This document shows, in pieces, positions 10,092 through 49,474 of a DNA stretch of 64,000 nucleotides; the stretch's first letter is position 1; every line of letters starts with the position of its first letter. The notes beneath the pieces were generated by a model, which saw only the letters and a program-made list of their open reading frames with translations, was not told the DNA's origin and made no database searches. The DNA comes from Candidatus Tayloriibacteriota bacterium (GTDB lineage Bacteria > Patescibacteriota > Minisyncoccia > Phycocordibacterales > CAIZLB01). The stretch spans positions 9,721 through 73,720 of the forward strand of contig VEQN01000003.1 of NCBI GenBank assembly GCA_018883165.1. The letters run 5' to 3'. The translations under genes were made by a program, and so were the position numbers.

Positions 10092-11258
10092 ATGTCACAA
10101 GACTATTATAAAATTCTAGGGGTAGACAAAAACGCATCTAAGGATGATATTAAAAAAGCATTCCGTAAGCTTGCGCACCAACACCATCCAGACAAAAACG
10201 GAGGGGACGACAAGAAGTTCAAAGAAGTGAATGAGGCATATACTGTGTTGTCTGATGACCAGAAGCGTGCACAATACGACCAGTTTGGTAGTGCAGGTCC
10301 TAGTACAGGATTTAATGGCGGAGGAGGCTTCGGTGGCTTCGATTTTAGTGGTTTCTCACAAGGATTCAACGGAGCTGATATGGAGTTTGATCTCGGTGAC
10401 ATATTTGGTGGAATATTTGGTGGAGGAAGAAAGAGTTCACGTTCAAAAGAAAAGCGTGGTTCTGATATACAAGTAGATATTGAAATATCTTTTGAAGATT
10501 CTATCTTTGGTACTGAGAAAGAGTTTACGGTTCACCGAACTGACACCTGTACGCATTGTAAAGGAGAAAGAAAAGAACCAGGTACTGATTTTGTGACTTG
10601 TAATACTTGTAACGGGCAAGGGCAAGTGATTGAGAATCGAAGAAGCATGTTTGGAACATTTCAGTCTGCAAGAATGTGTGATACTTGTGACGGTACAGGA
10701 AAAATCCCAAAAGAGAAATGCAGAGAATGTAAAGGTAAAGGTACACAAAACAAAAAAGATACAATACGGGCAGTCATTCCTGCAGGTATAGAATCTGGTG
10801 AGATGCTTCGGGTAACCGGAAAAGGTGAGGCTGTTGCAGGAGGACGAAACGGTGATCTCTTCATCAAAATATATGTACGAAAAGACACAAGACAAGCACG
10901 AAGTGCATACAGCACATCTGATGTCTCATATATTGGAAATGTTAGAAAAGAAGGAAACAATTTGGTAGGTGAGCTGCATATCAAAATTACAGATACACTT
11001 CTTGGTGCTGAAAAAGAACTTGAAACGTTAGATGGAAAAATCACGATTAAAATTCCAAGAGGTATAACTCACGGTGAGATATTAAAAGTAAAAGAGAAGG
11101 GTGTACCGTTTGGCCCAGGATCAGAGAATCCAGAGAAATCTAGAAGCTCATCTGTAAGAAGAGGAGACTTGTTACTTGTGATTAAAATTGATATACCAGA
11201 CAAACTCTCAAAGAATGCACAAAGACTAGTTGATGAATTGAAGGGTGAGGGGGTATAA
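10092..11258 (+). CDS. dnaJ: chaperone DnaJ
   Basis: J domain (DYYKILGV...HPDKN), a G/F-rich region and four CxxCxGxG zinc-finger repeats. ATG at 10092 chosen rather than the upstream alternative start. Confidence 0.9.
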
Positions 11259-11266
11259 TATCCGAT

Positions 11267-11776
11267 ATGGATTTCATTTCATCATATCTCTCAACGTTAA
11301 ACATAACACTCATAGCTGTTGTACTACTCCTTACAATTATTTCTTTCTACAGAGGAAGAAGCATTTTGTATTCAATTATTCTTGCATATTTCCCAGCAGC
11401 AATACTATACGCTTCTTTTCCATACAAAAAACAAATGCTGTTCTTCCAAAACGGAGCTGATCAACTATTCTATTCAAACTTGATTATCTTCCTGATATTC
11501 TTCTGTCTTTCTTTTTTCGGGGCAATACGAATAGTGCATAGTGGAGAATCAAGAGCAGGTCTTCATGGTTTCATAGATGCTTTAGTACTCTCGATCTCAG
11601 TGGTACTTCTCACCACAGCATTAACCTTCCATATATTGCCTTACAAAGATATATATAACCTAGGTACACTTGTTCAGAGCTTTTTGAGTAGCAAAATGGG
11701 ATATTTTGTATCCACACTTGTTCCTGTAATAACCATATATTGGATGACTAGAAGGTACCAGCGGGGAGTGTTATAA
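11267..11776 (+). CDS. hypothetical polytopic membrane protein
   Basis: 169 aa with about five hydrophobic helices. No motif recognised. Confidence 0.45.
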   Translation: MDFISSYLSTLNITLIAVVLLLTIISFYRGRSILYSIILAYFPAAILYASFPYKKQMLFFQNGADQLFYSNLIIFLIFFCLSFFGAIRIVHSGESRAGLHGFIDALVLSISVVLLTTALTFHILPYKDIYNLGTLVQSFLSSKMGYFVSTLVPVITIYWMTRRYQRGVL

Positions 11777-11783
11777 GAAAGTA

Positions 11784-11813
11784 TTGACTTTTTATAATAT
11801 AGTGTGGTATAAT
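11784..11813 (+). promoter_or_regulatory. sigma70-like promoter with extended -10 (TTGACT-N18-TGgTATAAT)
   Basis: TTGACT at 11784-11789 and TATAAT at 11808-11813, preceded by TGG. Confidence 0.5.
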
Positions 11814-11868
11814 ATTATTTAGAATACAGATACTCAGTTTTCAACTCAACATCCAACACCCCGACAAC

Positions 11869-12435
11869 ATGAACTCTGCAACGCTCCTTCACATTGCACT
11901 TTCAGTGCTTTCAGTCATCCTTTCAATATTTGTCGACTCACTCATCGAATGGTGGGTCCACAAATACCCCATGCATCGTAAATTGCCAGGGCCATTCTTC
12001 AAGTTTTTGTTTCGTCACCACGTGACGATTCATCACGCGAAGTTCAGTGGTGAAGCGTATCATCACCACAACCATAAAGACCGCGAGACAATCGCGTTTC
12101 CTTTGTGGGTTGGCCCACTCCTGATTCTAACAGCCATCAGCCCATTCTGGGCCTTCAGCTACTACATCGGGAACAACATACCAGTGTACAGCTCACTCGC
12201 TGTGGCCATCCTTTACTATGTGTGTTTCGAGGGCTTTCACCAGCTCATGCATATGGAGGATTACCCAGTAGTTCGCTGGATCAGGAAAAGCAAGTGGTTT
12301 ACTTGGTTGGATACCCACCATGAGATTCATCATCTCAAGGCTGGTGTTAACTTCAACCTAGTCTGTCCACTAGGCGACTATGCCATGGGGACGCTTCTTA
12401 CAGCTTCAGAGTACGCTCTAAAGTTCAAGAAGTGA
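11869..12435 (+). CDS. fatty acid hydroxylase superfamily membrane di-iron oxygenase (sterol desaturase/CrtZ-like His-box protein)
   Basis: Four histidine boxes: HKYPMH (HX4H), HHVTIHH, HQLMH (HX3H) and HHEIHH (HX2HH), within a 188-aa protein with 3-4 TM helices. The pattern is typical of the membrane FA hydroxylase/desaturase superfamily. Confidence 0.6.
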   Translation: MNSATLLHIALSVLSVILSIFVDSLIEWWVHKYPMHRKLPGPFFKFLFRHHVTIHHAKFSGEAYHHHNHKDRETIAFPLWVGPLLILTAISPFWAFSYYIGNNIPVYSSLAVAILYYVCFEGFHQLMHMEDYPVVRWIRKSKWFTWLDTHHEIHHLKAGVNFNLVCPLGDYAMGTLLTASEYALKFKK

Positions 12436-12452
12436 AAGAATGACAACTTGAG

Positions 12453-12485
12453 GCCCACCACCGATTCGTTCGGGGTGGGCTTTTG
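12453..12485 (+). terminator. rho-independent terminator
   Basis: GCCCACC accgattcgttcgg GGTGGGC followed by TTTT. Confidence 0.6.
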
Positions 12486-12537
12486 TCATATTTGCATTTT
12501 TATAAACATATGTTATTATGTTTATACGTAAGCCCAC

Positions 12538-13350
12538 ATGAAAGAAGTGTCGAACAGTCTGATATACAATCACAAAAGCAGACCCCTTGCTAACGCTATT
12601 CATGTCCAAGAGTCATCACGAAAAAAAGACGACAATTCTACAGTCGTCATTTTTTTTAGAAGAATTAGTCAATATGTGTACGATTTCAAATGTGCAGTTA
12701 TCAAAGGATATGCGCGCATTACCCAATACCTCTCATGGTTTGCATTGTGGCCAATGCTTAAGTTTTTTTATCAAATTAAGTACCATGACCGGAAGAACTT
12801 AAAAGGGATCAAACCTCCTGTAATAATCATTGCAAATCATCAAAAGTTTTACGATGCCTTTTTAATCCGACTTGCACTTGGATTCCATTCTAGACTCCTA
12901 CCAATGAGATTCATGGCGGATATGAAATTTCAAGATCCATTCTTAAAGATGGTTAAGAAGACAGGTCTTATACATTTTCTTTATGCAACAACAGGTGTAT
13001 TCACTGTGGAAAAGGGTCTAGGATTGAACAAGAATCTCAAGCGGGCGAAAGCAATACTTAAAAACAAGGGTGTGGTTGCAATGTTTCCAGAGGGAAGATT
13101 GAATAGAACAAAAGAGCTTCTCCAATTCAAAAGAGGAGTATCCGCACTTGCACTTTCATCAAATACCCCAATCTTACCAGTAGTGATCAAGATAGGTGAA
13201 CATGGTACAAGAAATATATTGGGTATGAGGAGAAGAAAAATTGATATTAAAATTGGTATACACAAAAAACTTGAAACACACAGTACATATGAAGAACTTG
13301 CTGAGCAACTACGAACTGACGTACATGAGATACTCAGTTCAATCGAATAA
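12538..13350 (+). CDS. lysophospholipid (1-acyl-glycerol-3-phosphate) acyltransferase family protein
   Basis: HX4D motif (NHQKFYD) and FPEGR motif of the PlsC/LPLAT superfamily. Confidence 0.6.
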   Translation: MKEVSNSLIYNHKSRPLANAIHVQESSRKKDDNSTVVIFFRRISQYVYDFKCAVIKGYARITQYLSWFALWPMLKFFYQIKYHDRKNLKGIKPPVIIIANHQKFYDAFLIRLALGFHSRLLPMRFMADMKFQDPFLKMVKKTGLIHFLYATTGVFTVEKGLGLNKNLKRAKAILKNKGVVAMFPEGRLNRTKELLQFKRGVSALALSSNTPILPVVIKIGEHGTRNILGMRRRKIDIKIGIHKKLETHSTYEELAEQLRTDVHEILSSIE

Positions 13351-13395
13351 TTATACACATGCACAGAATTTGGAAGTGTATGATATCATTTACGC

Positions 13396-14466
13396 ATGAT
13401 TACTGATTTACTTTCAAATCTGTTTAGAAGAAACTTCAGAAAAAGAAAAATTGATTTTGCCTTTCTGATTCATCCTAGGTATACAGGAGACATATATCGT
13501 AAGTACCCAATATTAAAAGTACTACCTGAGTGGGTGGTTAATTTCGCATTATACTATTTCTGGCCAACATACGGTGGAACAATCAAAGGGTTAACACGTG
13601 AGGGCAAACCGATATTTGGCGCTTTGATTATAGTACCAATGCCTTCAAAGCAAATGCTTAAGTATCGTGCAAGAGCAAAGAAAAGAGTACTTGCAGCTGT
13701 AAAACTGGCCGAAGTATATGGAGCTGAAATCGTGGGACTCGGTGCACTAACATCTTCTGTAACAGGTGGAGGACTCGAAATTATGGAGCAAAGCAAGCCC
13801 GTACACCTCACCTCTGGCAACTCACTTACTGCATACACCACAGCAAATGACATCATCGAGAGGGTAAAAAGAGAAGGTGTCAGTGGACCTATCGCTATCA
13901 TTGGTGCAACTGGTTCAATTGGACAAGCAGTTGCTGAAATGCTTTACGAAGAATTGCAAAACGAAATTATTGTGATTGGAAAAAATCCAGAACGTACAGC
14001 TCGTGTTGCTGAACTTCTAAAGGAAAAGAATATTTCAGGTAAACCTGACCCTAAAGCAAGTACGAATGTTCTGGAAGTATCACGAGCGGAAATTTTGGTA
14101 ATTACAACGTCAGCACATGATGCTACCGTTAACAGGGAGATGATAAAAAATGCGAAAATCATCTACGACGTAACACAACCAAAAAATACACCTGAAGATA
14201 TTCAGAATGATTCAAGTATTGTATTTATTGATGGAGGTTTGATTAAACTCCCTGAACAAATTCACCTTACATTGGATGTTGGTCTACCTAAAGGTATTGC
14301 ATATTCTTGTCTATCTGAGACAATGATATTAGCTGCGTCAGAGCGGTTTGATTTGGTATCAGGTTCAAAACTACTTACTGGGAATATCAGAACAATGGGG
14401 GAATTAGCTAAGAAGTTTGAATTTAAGTCACACCAAATTATTACTAACCATGGACATCACATTTGA
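13396..14466 (+). CDS. acyl-ACP reductase (AAR)-like NAD(P)-dependent reductase
   Basis: Hand alignment to cyanobacterial AAR: GLGALTSSV vs ISALGGFTSII; TSGNSLTAYTT vs TTGNTHTAYV; IAIIGATGSIGQAVAEML vs VAVVGATGDIGSAVCRWL; IIVIGKNPERTARV vs LILTARNQERLDNL; YDVTQPKN vs IDGGYPKN. Confidence 0.6.
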   Translation: MITDLLSNLFRRNFRKRKIDFAFLIHPRYTGDIYRKYPILKVLPEWVVNFALYYFWPTYGGTIKGLTREGKPIFGALIIVPMPSKQMLKYRARAKKRVLAAVKLAEVYGAEIVGLGALTSSVTGGGLEIMEQSKPVHLTSGNSLTAYTTANDIIERVKREGVSGPIAIIGATGSIGQAVAEMLYEELQNEIIVIGKNPERTARVAELLKEKNISGKPDPKASTNVLEVSRAEILVITTSAHDATVNREMIKNAKIIYDVTQPKNTPEDIQNDSSIVFIDGGLIKLPEQIHLTLDVGLPKGIAYSCLSETMILAASERFDLVSGSKLLTGNIRTMGELAKKFEFKSHQIITNHGHHI

Positions 14467-16063
14467 TTTAGAGACAACAAGTCTAGTCATCTCAGGACTA
14501 ATCAACCTGATTTTGGTAGTTGTAATTGGTATTCGAAGGAACAAAACAAAAGATACAATATTCTTCCTGCTCTTTAGTATCTCCGTACTCGGTTGGGTAC
14601 TATCACGTCTCCTTTTTGAAATAACTACAGATGTTACATTATTTAGATCTGCACAACTTTTGTATTTCTGTGCAACCTACATCCCGTTGTTCCTATTGTT
14701 GTTTATCGAATCTTTTCCAAGAAAAGAGCATTCATATTCGAGAGGGAAACTTACTCTCATTCTCACACCCGCAATCATTGCAAGTATCTTATGTTGGATA
14801 CCCGGGGCAGTCATTCAAGCTATTTATACAGATTTAGATGGTCATAAGGCAATCACTTTTGGTTGGGCATACCTCTTCTACTTCTTCTATATTATTTCAT
14901 ATTTCTTACTTGGAATAATTAAAATGATAACAAAACACCGAAAAGCTGAGGGTGTCGAGCGGAATCAACTTGAAATTGTATTCTTAAGTATCCTAGTATC
15001 ATCTTCTGTAGGTATGTTTGCTAACCTTATCCTACCTACACTAGGTTCGTTTGAATTCTTTTGGGTAGGACCACTCTTTAGTGTATTTATGGTTCTCACA
15101 ATCGGATATGCCATCGTTAGGTATCAGCTATTTGAGACGAAGCTCATTACCACAGAGTTCATGACTTTCTTCCTGTGGGCACTAATTCTCATCAGAACAA
15201 TATATTCCGGAAGTACACAAGATAGAATTATAAATGGGTTACTATTCCTAGCATCTGTCATCATTGGTTTGTATCTCATCAGAAGTGTAGTAAATGAGAT
15301 ATTCCAAAGAGAGAAGATTGAAACATTGGCTAAAGATCTAGAAAAAGCCAACGAACATCTTCAAGAACTTGATCAACAGAAATCAGAGTTCGTATCTCTT
15401 GCTAGTCATCAGCTACGAGGTCCACTTACTGCCATCAAAGGATATGCATCCATGCTTTTAGACAACGATTTTGGTGAAATTAAAGGAGAAGTACGTGACG
15501 CTGTTGATAAGGTGTACAAATCAACACAAGATCTTGTAGTTGTAGTAGGTGACTATCTCGATGTTTCAAGAATCGAGCAAGGAAGGATGCAGTACGATAT
15601 GTCTGATTTCGATATGAGAGACCTTGTTGCAACAATCGTAACAGAACTTCGTCCGAACATAGAACGTGCTAAACTCACCATGGATTTCGATTTCGACACA
15701 GAGGGTAACTTTACAGTACATGGTGACCAAGGAAAGATTAAGCAGGTAATTGGAAACATTGTTGATAATGCGATTAAATATTGCCCAAGTGGAGGTATAC
15801 ACATTTGGGTTGCACACCGACCTGAGAATAAAGTATTAGTTACCATTTCAGATACAGGAGTAGGTATTCACCCTGATGTACTTCCAAGACTTTTTGAAAA
15901 GTTTACGCGGGCACCTGATGCTTCAAAAACGAACATCATGGGTACTGGTCTTGGTCTATACGTAGCTCGTAAAATGATTGAGGCTCATAACGGTAAGATC
16001 TGGGCTGAGTCACCAGGGGTAGGAAAGGGATCTAGCTTCTTCATTGAACTGGCGTTGGCATAA
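14450..16063 (+). CDS. sensor histidine kinase with N-terminal multi-TM (7TM-type) sensor domain
   Basis: About eight TM helices, then HisKA (SHQLRGPLTAIKGY) and HATPase_c (DNAIKY...GTGLGLY). No response regulator is nearby. Confidence 0.8.
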   Translation: MDITFDLETTSLVISGLINLILVVVIGIRRNKTKDTIFFLLFSISVLGWVLSRLLFEITTDVTLFRSAQLLYFCATYIPLFLLLFIESFPRKEHSYSRGKLTLILTPAIIASILCWIPGAVIQAIYTDLDGHKAITFGWAYLFYFFYIISYFLLGIIKMITKHRKAEGVERNQLEIVFLSILVSSSVGMFANLILPTLGSFEFFWVGPLFSVFMVLTIGYAIVRYQLFETKLITTEFMTFFLWALILIRTIYSGSTQDRIINGLLFLASVIIGLYLIRSVVNEIFQREKIETLAKDLEKANEHLQELDQQKSEFVSLASHQLRGPLTAIKGYASMLLDNDFGEIKGEVRDAVDKVYKSTQDLVVVVGDYLDVSRIEQGRMQYDMSDFDMRDLVATIVTELRPNIERAKLTMDFDFDTEGNFTVHGDQGKIKQVIGNIVDNAIKYCPSGGIHIWVAHRPENKVLVTISDTGVGIHPDVLPRLFEKFTRAPDASKTNIMGTGLGLYVARKMIEAHNGKIWAESPGVGKGSSFFIELALA

Positions 16064-16075
16064 GTTTGGGTAGAT

Positions 16076-17098
16076 ATGATATCATCACAGCATATGAGTA
16101 ATACTCCAATTACAACAACCACGGGCAAAAAAGTCCTTGTTTCTGGTATTAAATCAACCGGAAGACCACATATTGGTAACTATTTCGGTGCCATGAAGCA
16201 ATATGTAGAGATGCAACATGAGTATGATACTCGTATTTTCATTGCAGATCTTCACTCTCTCACTTCAGTACAAAATGGCAGTGAGTTAGCACAGGCAACT
16301 CTTGATCTTGCCATCGACTATATCGCCATTGGGTTAGACCCTGAGAAGGTGACAATATTTAAGCAATCAGACTTACCCGAAGTAACAGAGCTTGGGTGGA
16401 TTTTTAATTGCATCACAACAATGCCATACCTTATGCGTGCTCATTCATTTAAAGATGCAGAGGCAAAAAACAAGGAAATCAATGTCGGTGTCTTTGATTA
16501 CCCAATGCTCATGGCAGCAGATATCCTCATTCACAATGCAGACATTGTTCCAGTTGGAAAAGACCAGAAACAACATGTTGAGTTTGCAAGAGACACTGCT
16601 GAAAAGTTCAACAGAATCTTTAGAGGTGATGGTAAATCATGCGAACCAGAGAATGCACTCTTTAAGCTTCCTGACGTACATATCATTGAATCGGTTGAAA
16701 CTGTTCCTGGTATAGACGGACAAAAGATGAGTAAAAGCTACAACAACCATATTCCACTATTCTCCACAGATGAAGAGCTGAAGAAACTGGTCATGTCCAT
16801 CGTGACAGACTCAAATGGTGGAAAACCAATGAATGTATACAATATGCACAAATTGTTTAGAGACGAAACATATCTTGAGAAACTATATACTAAGAACGAA
16901 GGGAAGTACAAAATATTAAAAGAGGCTTTACTTGAAGACATGATAGCATTCATTAAACCTCTTCGAGAAAAAAGAGAGCAGATAGCAAAAGACCCAGACA
17001 AGGTAAGAAATATCCTTGCTCGAAATGGCGCTCTAATGAGAGAGAAGACACATGCCTTGATGTATGAGGTACGGAAAGCAACAGGACTCATTGTGTAA
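16076..17098 (+). CDS. trpS: tryptophan--tRNA ligase
   Basis: Class I motifs: HIGN and KMSKS (DGQKMSKS). Confidence 0.9.
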   Translation: MISSQHMSNTPITTTTGKKVLVSGIKSTGRPHIGNYFGAMKQYVEMQHEYDTRIFIADLHSLTSVQNGSELAQATLDLAIDYIAIGLDPEKVTIFKQSDLPEVTELGWIFNCITTMPYLMRAHSFKDAEAKNKEINVGVFDYPMLMAADILIHNADIVPVGKDQKQHVEFARDTAEKFNRIFRGDGKSCEPENALFKLPDVHIIESVETVPGIDGQKMSKSYNNHIPLFSTDEELKKLVMSIVTDSNGGKPMNVYNMHKLFRDETYLEKLYTKNEGKYKILKEALLEDMIAFIKPLREKREQIAKDPDKVRNILARNGALMREKTHALMYEVRKATGLIV

Positions 17099-48298: not shown

Positions 48299-49474
48299 AT
48301 GAAAACCATTCTCACTCTTCTCGCCAGCTTGTTGCTGGTCTCTAACATGTTCGCTGGTCCAACGACCACGACAACCACCACGCAAACAACGACAGCGAGT
48401 GCAGCTCCTGCACCCGAAGAAATGTTGATGTTGTCTAGCGCCGCCGAGCTCAAGCTCTACGCGCTCAGCTCCATCACGTCTGCCAGTTCGTTTGTCTGGG
48501 GCCAGTCCATCCTGCGGTCTGTCGGCGACGTCACAAGTATCTATGTCGAAGGCGACGTTGATCAGGTCACAGAGCGCCTGCTCCTGCCTGGTAACCAGTT
48601 CCGCTTCAAAGTGCGAAACAACAACGAAGTCTATGTCTACGCAACACTGAATAACTCCAGTGGCGAGAGCCTCTTTACGAGTTATGCTCCTGCGGCTCCA
48701 ATCGCAGGTGGTGGACAGTTGGTCATCAATCCAACGCTGCGACTCCAGATGAATTGGGTCATCCCCGTGTATTTCCCTGGCGCCCAATACGCGACCATTT
48801 ACTACACCGATGATCAAGGTAACTCCTGGCAAGAAAATCTGAACGTCGGCAACGGGAAAATCTACTTCCCAGTCAACTATGCTGGCCGCGGCACACTCGT
48901 CGTTGGTCGCCAGTATCCAAACAACGCCACTGGCGGATACGATTTGGAAGTTGCCTATAACCTGACCACAGGTGCCCTGATTCAAAGCCAGGTCATCGCA
49001 AGTCAGGTTGGATATGTTGGTATCGAGAACTACATCGCCTTCAGCGACAAACTCTCACCAACAATTGGCACCTTGGTTTTGACCACGAGCATGACTCCAC
49101 CATCGAAAGATCAGTGGGGCTTCATATCCCCTCCCACCGGCTCCATCAAACTGGAGTCCACGCAGGAAGGAGCAAGCCGCCCATTCAAACTCAATGTCAG
49201 CTTCTCGTGCACCCCACAGGAACTCGGAACCATTCAGGCGTTCGCCTATGACCCGACAACTGCTGATGCAGATGGCTTTGTCGACGAGTTCCCTGGAGTT
49301 GTGACTACGACAAGTTTTCAAACTCCCAGTGGAACTACGCAGACAAACGTGACGGTGACCTGGACGGTCACCCGAAACACCGCTACCTCCAAGTGGCTGT
49401 GGCGTCTCGAGACGACAGGATTCAACAAGCAAGCGAAGCCTCAACCACCCTATTACGGAGTTGGCAAAGGCTAG
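48299..49474 (+). CDS. hypothetical secreted protein with poly-Thr linker (GC-rich segment)
   Basis: Signal peptide, a TTTTTTTQTTT linker and a beta-rich body. Codon use is visibly GC-richer than flanking genes. Confidence 0.5.
   Translation: MKTILTLLASLLLVSNMFAGPTTTTTTTQTTTASAAPAPEEMLMLSSAAELKLYALSSITSASSFVWGQSILRSVGDVTSIYVEGDVDQVTERLLLPGNQFRFKVRNNNEVYVYATLNNSSGESLFTSYAPAAPIAGGGQLVINPTLRLQMNWVIPVYFPGAQYATIYYTDDQGNSWQENLNVGNGKIYFPVNYAGRGTLVVGRQYPNNATGGYDLEVAYNLTTGALIQSQVIASQVGYVGIENYIAFSDKLSPTIGTLVLTTSMTPPSKDQWGFISPPTGSIKLESTQEGASRPFKLNVSFSCTPQELGTIQAFAYDPTTADADGFVDEFPGVVTTTSFQTPSGTTQTNVTVTWTVTRNTATSKWLWRLETTGFNKQAKPQPPYYGVGKG

Follow-up and report, generated by a model that had tools for sequence, protein, structure and literature searches.

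Cyanobacterial acyl-ACP (acyl carrier protein) reductase (AAR), PigE's N-terminal domain (PigE-N) and glutamyl-tRNA reductase (GluTR) share a chemistry in which a thioester on an active-site cysteine is reduced by NADPH, and AAR and GluTR channel the resulting aldehyde to the next enzyme, as has also been proposed for PigE (PMC8341465). In these characterised relatives the aldehyde is received by a partner that is fused to the reductase or bound to it, an aldehyde-deformylating oxygenase (ADO) for AAR and an aminotransferase for PigE and GluTR. In the TAD domain the same cysteine is retained beside the nicotinamide (bioRxiv 10.1101/2024.10.28.620694). So far, an oxygenase, aminotransferases and nonribosomal peptide synthetase (NRPS) modules are the partners known for the AAR fold, to which a sensor kinase would add another kind. 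Here we analysed a 64,000-nt stretch of contig VEQN01000003.1 from a Candidatus Tayloriibacteriota bacterium (assembly GCA_018883165.1, positions 9,721 to 73,720 of the forward strand; hereafter the window), in which a 356-aa homologue of these reductases (AARL, 13396-14466, + strand) is encoded in overlap with a seven-transmembrane (7TM) sensor histidine kinase (14450-16063, +).

Further systems with which this pair can be compared are the CqsA-CqsS and LqsA-LqsS cassettes, in which an enzyme gene stands beside a gene for a polytopic kinase without an extracytoplasmic domain, and in which the CqsS/LqsS-type kinases sense through their membrane-spanning domain. The autoinducer synthase and its receptor are usually adjacent and co-evolving, and CqsA uses acyl-CoA thioesters (PMC3376566). 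As for the hosts, bacteria of the candidate phyla radiation (CPR) reportedly have neither fatty-acid synthesis nor ACP, retain PlsY and PlsC and abound in lysolipids; they are thought to live on lipids from other cells, and how those lipids are activated, remodelled and monitored is unknown (PMC7242380). In the open-access literature searched, we found no paper linking AAR-like enzymes to CPR/Patescibacteria or to HisKA_7TM kinases. Each protein considered here comes from a known superfamily; of the pairing of AARL with the kinase we found no description.

The window matched a metagenome-assembled genome of Candidatus Taylorbacteria (CPR/Patescibacteria) at 100% identity (locus tags FGM57_01115 and FGM57_01125), and an exact-sequence look-up of the window's AARL returned no record. 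An earlier interpretation of positions 11784 to 16063, made by a model from the letters without database searches (the sequence-only reading), had described four same-strand genes, and the four open reading frames (ORFs) were confirmed: a histidine-box (His-box) membrane protein of 188 aa (11869-12435, +), a PlsC/LPLAT-type acyltransferase of 270 aa (12538-13350, +), AARL (13396-14466) and the kinase, whose longest ORF covers 14417-16063 (+; 548 aa). That ORF begins with a TTG at 14417; comparison with the orthologue in the related locus L019 makes the ATG at 14450 the likelier start, with which the kinase gene and the 3' end of the AARL gene share an overlap of 17 nt.

For the comparison of neighbourhoods, 28 locus records (L001-L028, including a few duplicates) were gathered and searched by tblastn and hidden Markov models. 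An alignment of 17 AARL sequences was too divergent for a genome scan, and a seven-sequence alignment gave eight genome loci and six metagenome loci; the counts reported below rest on 14 loci with downstream sequence and 17 with upstream sequence. In each of the 14 independent CPR loci for which downstream sequence is available (the window, L006, L007, L009/L014, L010, L011, L012, L015, L016, L019, L020, L021, L024 and L027/L028), AARL is directly followed by a HisKA_7TM kinase. The sequence-only reading had taken the kinase for an unrelated orphan; it is instead the only invariant neighbour of AARL. The pairing is kept at AARL identities as low as 35%, and among L014, L016, L020 and L027 all other neighbours differ while the pair stays. 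The six loci in which genes had been called show junctions of -29 to +5 nt between the two, the window one of -17 nt, and the pairwise identities of AARL and of the kinase co-vary across 12 loci (r = 0.94). The invariant partner of AARL in CPR is thus the overlapping or abutting 7TM kinase, not the His-box oxygenase.

All three Pfam domains of the kinase pass their cutoffs (HisKA_7TM, PF16927, 60.5 bits; HisKA, 55.4 bits; HATPase_c, 96.5 bits). Its first 300 residues hold eight hydrophobic segments, the 7TM bundle is the only sensor domain recognised by Pfam, and the 7TM region had no match among solved structures. Extra kinase genes of this type were seen at several loci: a tandem duplicate HisKA_7TM kinase beside the pair (L014, 8031-11325), a 368-aa 7TM and HisKA protein without an ATPase domain beside the pair (L010, 4614-5720, -), and a second HisKA_7TM kinase upstream of PlsC (L012, 3405-5063). 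AARL fragments without a kinase and followed by unrelated sequence occur in L023 (4079-4525, about 145 aa) and L026 (2723-3004, about 94 aa), and may be gene remnants or assembly chimeras.

The sequence-only reading had assigned AARL to cyanobacterial-type AAR. The best NCBIfam match of AARL is the PigE N-terminal domain (NF053554, positions 58-339 of 837; E-value 1e-36, 126.7 bits, below the full-length cutoff of 850 bits), followed by the cyanobacterial AAR equivalog TIGR04058 (5.2e-17, 62.2 bits against a cutoff of 449.7). With phmmer against solved structures, PigE (4ppm) was matched at 9e-15 and AAR (6jzu) at 3e-10 over residues 69-313, and in the latter alignment Cys305 of AARL falls on the catalytic Cys294 of AAR, GATGSIG on GATGDIG and TSGN on TTGN. 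An AlphaFold model of AARL built from 17 homologues (pLDDT 92) retrieved AAR (6jzy/6jzu) as the top Foldseek match in the PDB (E-value 1e-19, TM score 0.76-0.80), with the carmabin TAD domains as the next structural matches. AARL therefore falls into the AAR-fold superfamily without being an AAR of the cyanobacterial type: it shares the fold, the catalytic cysteine and the nucleotide-binding motif of AAR, and another reductase family, PigE-N, is matched better. Since PigE-N is itself AAR-like (PMC8341465), this better match shifts the subfamily and not the chemistry.

The conserved motifs of AARL are FAFLIHP at residue 21, TSGN at 139, GATGSIG at 170 and Cys305. Across homologues down to 31% identity, F21, F23, H26, T139, G141, G170, G173, I175, G176, D258 and C305 are invariant, and the cysteine is kept in all 17 homologues. 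We presume that the FAFLIHP strand motif corresponds to FGLIGH in AAR. Judged from these motifs and from the structural model, AARL very probably acts on acyl thioesters as a Cys-dependent, NAD(P)-linked enzyme. The family to which it belongs is common in CPR/Parcubacteria, where its annotations are generic only, and is no peculiarity of the genome studied here.

Compared with cyanobacterial AAR (6JZU/6JZY; TIGR04058), AARL thus shares the two-domain fold and the counterparts of TSGN, GATGSIG and Cys305, but is only about 19-20% identical and scores 62 bits against the equivalog cutoff of 450, has no ADO partner and in the CPR loci always has a 7TM kinase, carries a basic amphipathic N-terminal extension of about 20 aa, and occurs in hosts reportedly without ACP. 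Compared with the PigE/TamH N-terminal domain from the prodigiosin and tambjamine pathways, its best sequence match, AARL keeps the cysteine and the nucleotide motif, but it stands alone rather than being fused to a class III PLP (pyridoxal phosphate) aminotransferase, has none adjacent, and is not surrounded by a pigment or secondary-metabolite cluster.

The N-terminal extension of AARL comprises residues 1-20 (window 13396-13455), MITDLLSNLFRRNFRKRK, and is predicted to be helical. A second CPR clade of AARL has a different N-terminal extension of 27-30 aa, and the non-CPR homologues and some of the CPR ones have none. The extension could be a membrane or partner-docking element. A correlation between the extension and linkage to the kinase was considered and rejected, as L027 has the kinase but no extension.

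The explanation that we favour, tentatively, divides the region into two separable parts, a conserved CPR (Paceibacteria/Parcubacteria) module of PlsC, AARL and kinase (12538-16063) and a stand-alone His-box gene (11869-12435). AARL would take an activated acyl group onto Cys305 and reduce the thioester with NAD(P)H, most likely to an aldehyde, by the ping-pong type of chemistry of AAR, PigE-N and GluTR. AARL and the kinase would together form one enzyme-coupled sensor, whose membrane-embedded part would read how activated acyl chains are supplied, either from a hydrophobic product or from AARL's own acylation state. PlsC, a frequent though not obligatory member, would use the same acyl pool and re-acylate lysolipids, and the His-box protein would be an accessory lipid-modifying oxygenase, placed in this lineage between PlsC and TM169 (a multi-pass membrane protein of 169 aa, 11267-11776, +) and linked to the module only occasionally. 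The assignments to families and folds, the catalytic motifs, the overlap of the genes, the conservation counts and the His-box gene's own transcription signals are what the analysis shows; the substrate, the formation of an aldehyde from an activated acyl chain and the coupling to the 7TM sensor are what we infer. We do so because the superfamily combines a uniform Cys-thioester chemistry with a habit of handing its product to a partner, because the only sensory domain of the kinase is a membrane bundle, and because the variable neighbours are of lipid type (PlsC in 8 of 17 loci, FA_hydroxylase-type genes in 3 of 17, alpha/beta-hydrolases at five loci). The pair is probably tied to membrane lipid supply. 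Few conserved signalling modules can be seen in the reduced genomes of CPR bacteria, and this one, a two-protein system open to heterologous expression, offers a testable entry point to their lipid handling.

Carried further, AARL and the kinase might form a cognate signal-maker and receptor cassette across Paceibacteria/Parcubacteria, in which scavenged acyl chains are turned into a fatty aldehyde, or a hydrophobic molecule akin to one, that is sensed in the membrane; we regard this as unlikely. Such a cassette would let host-dependent, lipid-auxotrophic bacteria gauge their lipid supply, or the cells around them, through a system dedicated to it. The arrangement of an enzyme gene beside a polytopic kinase without an extracytoplasmic domain, seen here at 14 of 14 loci, is that of the Cqs and Lqs cassettes, in which the response regulator is also often encoded elsewhere, and the use of acyl thioesters, established for CqsA, is suggested for AARL by homology only. 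However, CqsA is a PLP enzyme with no sequence relationship to AARL, and there is no evidence for a diffusible signal in the AARL-kinase case, so that the resemblance is one of architecture only and not of membership.

We would like to note that a number of observations weigh against the enzyme-coupled sensor. The identity correlation of r = 0.94 is what would be expected of any two vertically co-inherited genes, the tight gene overlap is evidence of co-expression and not of physical or signalling coupling, and the sampling is limited to 14 to 17 loci. Homologues of AARL outside CPR, in Armatimonadota, Caldanaerobius and Margulisbacteria, are not accompanied by a 7TM kinase, so the pairing is clade-specific. 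A tblastn search of the 64-kb window, for which CheY and two REC sequences served as queries, detected no response-regulator receiver domain; among the related loci a response regulator lies nearby only in L016 and L010, and there is none beside most pairs. The output partner of the kinase is thus encoded elsewhere or very divergent. Finally, as CPR bacteria reportedly lack ACP (PMC7242380), the donor of AARL may not be a fatty acyl group, and its superfamily relatives use non-fatty substrates (a 3-acetyloctanoyl thioester for PigE, peptides bound to a peptidyl carrier protein for TAD, Glu-tRNA for GluTR).

Outside CPR, the place of the kinase is taken in Armatimonadota and Caldanaerobius by a conserved protein of about 305 aa encoded upstream of the AARL homologue, which is a different conserved partner of the same enzyme family. 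The two examples (L017, 5043-5969; L018, 5057-5968) are 48% identical to each other and had no Pfam match and no meaningful NCBIfam match.

A less probable account is that of a kinase-controlled operon for lipid salvage or remodelling, in which the 7TM kinase senses the state of the membrane, as DesK does, and PlsC and AARL are the effectors. AARL might then run oxidatively, as an acylating or phosphorylating aldehyde dehydrogenase which converts scavenged fatty aldehydes to an activated acyl donor (a thioester or acyl-phosphate) for PlsC or PlsY. The Cys-thioester chemistry of dehydrogenases is reversible in principle, as in GAPDH- and ASADH-type enzymes. With PlsY and PlsC present and PlsX and ACP missing, the source of activated acyl groups in CPR is an open question (PMC7242380) to which such an enzyme would speak, and both PlsC (adjacent or near in 8 of the 17 loci) and alpha/beta-hydrolases recur near the pair. 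Yet all characterised relatives work reductively, and a regulator encoded with its targets would normally include a response regulator, which is missing here. Moreover, PlsC is absent from 9 of the 17 loci and the kinase never, so PlsC cannot explain the linkage of the kinase to AARL.

The acyltransferase itself is well assigned. The PlsC/LPLAT identity and the HX4D and FPEGR motifs given in the sequence-only reading were all borne out, with PF01553 matched at 2.9e-20 (72.9 bits against a cutoff of 23), HX4D located at H101-QKFY-D106 and FPEGR at residues 183-187; the 1-acyl-G3P (glycerol-3-phosphate) acyltransferase model TIGR00530 was matched at 58.9 bits, below its cutoff of 102.95. In the 8 of 17 loci counted for PlsC, its gene lies on the same strand as AARL and at most 3 kb upstream. 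The alpha/beta-hydrolase genes carry GxSxG, lie beside the AARL-kinase pair at five loci (L006, 4923-5615, -; L008, 83-604, -; L026, 1227-1931, -; L019, 9410-10135; L020, 10817-11539) and at none in the window, and are not all orthologous to one another. TM169 has four strongly hydrophobic segments and no Pfam or NCBIfam match, and recurs upstream of the PlsC-reductase-kinase module, with orthologues directly upstream of PlsC in L007, L019 and L021.

We also considered that AARL might act on a non-lipid thioester or acyl carrier, as PigE-N, TAD and GluTR do, and yield a small aldehyde or amide metabolite, with the lipid-type neighbours being incidental. The ranking of the matches would fit this, PigE-N rather than AAR being the best family match and the TAD domains the next structural ones, as would the reported lack of ACP in CPR genomes (PMC7242380). 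We nevertheless think it rather unlikely, as no aminotransferase, NRPS, polyketide synthase or carrier-protein gene adjoins AARL at any locus examined, and the neighbours that do recur are lipid enzymes and a membrane-embedded sensor.

The proposal of the sequence-only reading was a different one, namely that a fatty aldehyde made by AARL is converted by the His-box protein as the reductase's dedicated partner, in place of ADO, through CER1-like decarbonylation or a reaction of the alkylglycerol monooxygenase or hydroxylase type, and leads together with PlsC to a hydrocarbon, wax or ether-type lipid. Action on lipids is plausible for each of the three proteins, and their family assignments are all supported at the level of the superfamily, that of the His-box protein to the fatty-acid hydroxylase/desaturase superfamily included. 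The window protein itself had no Pfam or NCBIfam match at E<0.1, but among its homologues 3 of 7 close sequences and 8 of 10 distant sequences matched PF04116, several with scores under the cutoff, and the AARL-adjacent orthologue in L025 did so above the FA_hydroxylase threshold (37.3 against 31 bits). An exhaustive profile search gave 1053 relatives. In an alignment of 60 sequences nine histidines are invariant (H31, H36, H51, H55, H56, H124, H128, H151 and H154) and a tenth, H155, is present in at least 90%; they fall in HX4H, HX3HH, HX3H and HX2HH motifs. The profile of these 60 sequences matched the entire catalytic domain of Scs7p (4zr1), the ceramide fatty-acid 2-hydroxylase of yeast, at 4e-8, and a homologue search with this profile added no named proteins; a cluster look-up returned one generic name, "sterol desaturase/sphingolipid hydroxylase".

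The His-box protein therefore resembles the Scs7p/FA2H-type hydroxylases (PF04116) in its ten conserved histidines, four motifs and four-helix membrane core, but is only 188 aa long, has no cytochrome b5 domain and falls below Pfam detection. Its AlphaFold model is poor (pLDDT 62). An ether-lipid or plasmalogen role was considered from the matches of single homologues to the CarF plasmanylethanolamine desaturase (E-value 0.0015) and to Lipid_desat (0.045), and was rejected, as these matches are too weak.

The gene has transcription signals of its own, as the sequence-only reading had claimed. A sigma-70-like promoter site lies upstream at 11784-11813 (+; TTGACT, an 18-nt spacer and TGgTATAAT with the extended -10 TG) and matches 11 of 12 positions, the best in 11200-16200, although promoter-like sites as a class are not enriched (11 found against 15.7 expected). 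Right after the stop codon stands an intrinsic-terminator-like hairpin (12450-12489, +; -30.5 kcal/mol, z = -5.9) followed by UUUUGU, as well as which none of 200 shuffles folded. With its own promoter and terminator, the His-box gene is a separate transcription unit.

The co-occurrence of the His-box gene with AARL is sporadic though recurrent. It lies near AARL in only 3 of the 17 loci, in three different arrangements (AARL identity at least 59%): directly upstream in L020 and in L025, and in the window with one more gene in between. The copy in L025 is intact, and in that of L020 (7302-7883) an in-frame TGA stands at the position of a conserved Trp (SN*F against SKWF), which may mark a pseudogene, a sequencing error or read-through. 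The full trio of His-box, PlsC and AARL genes, whose co-occurrence in relatives the sequence-only reading had named as a check, was found in the window alone. The closest syntenic loci, L019 and L021 (74-78% AARL identity), keep the order DnaJ-TM169-PlsC-AARL-kinase with nothing between TM169 and PlsC. Five further orthologues of the His-box gene (L001-L005, 54-65% identity) share a conserved setting that has nothing to do with AARL. They are flanked by a Mur-ligase-like gene, which is transcribed divergently, on one side and by a gene with a PEP-utilizers domain on the other, and in three of the five (L001, L002 and L004) a UbiE-type methyltransferase gene follows.

The recurrence of the His-box gene upstream of AARL in three loci, with the L025 copy recognised by Pfam, speaks for a shared pathway. 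Against it stand its absence from the nearest relatives, its presence in five relatives in another setting, the interrupted L020 copy and the separate transcription unit, and the nearest solved relative is an acyl-chain 2-hydroxylase. No alkyl-DHAP (dihydroxyacetone phosphate) synthase gene was seen among the neighbours, and no ADO gene beside AARL in the window or at any locus examined, where PlsC, the 7TM kinase, tryptophanyl-tRNA synthetase (TrpRS), hydrolases and similar genes were seen instead. We now consider a dedicated AARL-His-box pathway improbable, and the alkane or ether-lipid idea much less likely than it had seemed.

That the adjacency of AARL and kinase is functionally meaningless and reflects inherited synteny only is very improbable, for although the whole neighbourhood (DnaJ to TrpRS, aspartyl-tRNA synthetase (AspRS) and ScpAB) is syntenic in close relatives, the pair is kept to 35% identity where every other neighbour differs (L014, L016, L020 and L027), and its two genes overlap or abut throughout.

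The module is flanked by a housekeeping backbone, with GrpE-DnaK-DnaJ upstream and TrpRS-ABC exporter-AspRS-ScpA-ScpB-penicillin-binding protein-MraY-FtsW-MurG downstream, which is syntenic with L015 and L019. Given this setting, the module looks like part of the core genome and not like an island.

A different neighbourhood was seen in L027 (1642-5310 and 10878-12429), where the AARL-kinase pair, at 35% identity, lies among isoprenoid or archaeal-type lipid genes. These neighbours encode a CDP-archaeol-synthase-like protein (CarS, 125 bits), a CDP-alcohol phosphatidyltransferase, a cis-prenyltransferase, a thiolase, a short-chain dehydrogenase/reductase and a UbiA prenyltransferase. The same contig also encodes a PolyA_pol-family nucleotidyltransferase, which we take to be of bacterial type.

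PADLOC gave no defence-system match beyond generic kinase-ATPase similarity. Elsewhere in the window, an ORF of 391 aa at 48299-49474 (+), with a signal-peptide-like N-terminus and a poly-Thr run, lies inside a 2-kb stretch of about 50% GC, as against about 40% elsewhere. On neither strand was there a Pfam match, neither a tandem repeat nor an RNA family was seen, and the ORF could encode an acquired or fast-evolving surface protein.

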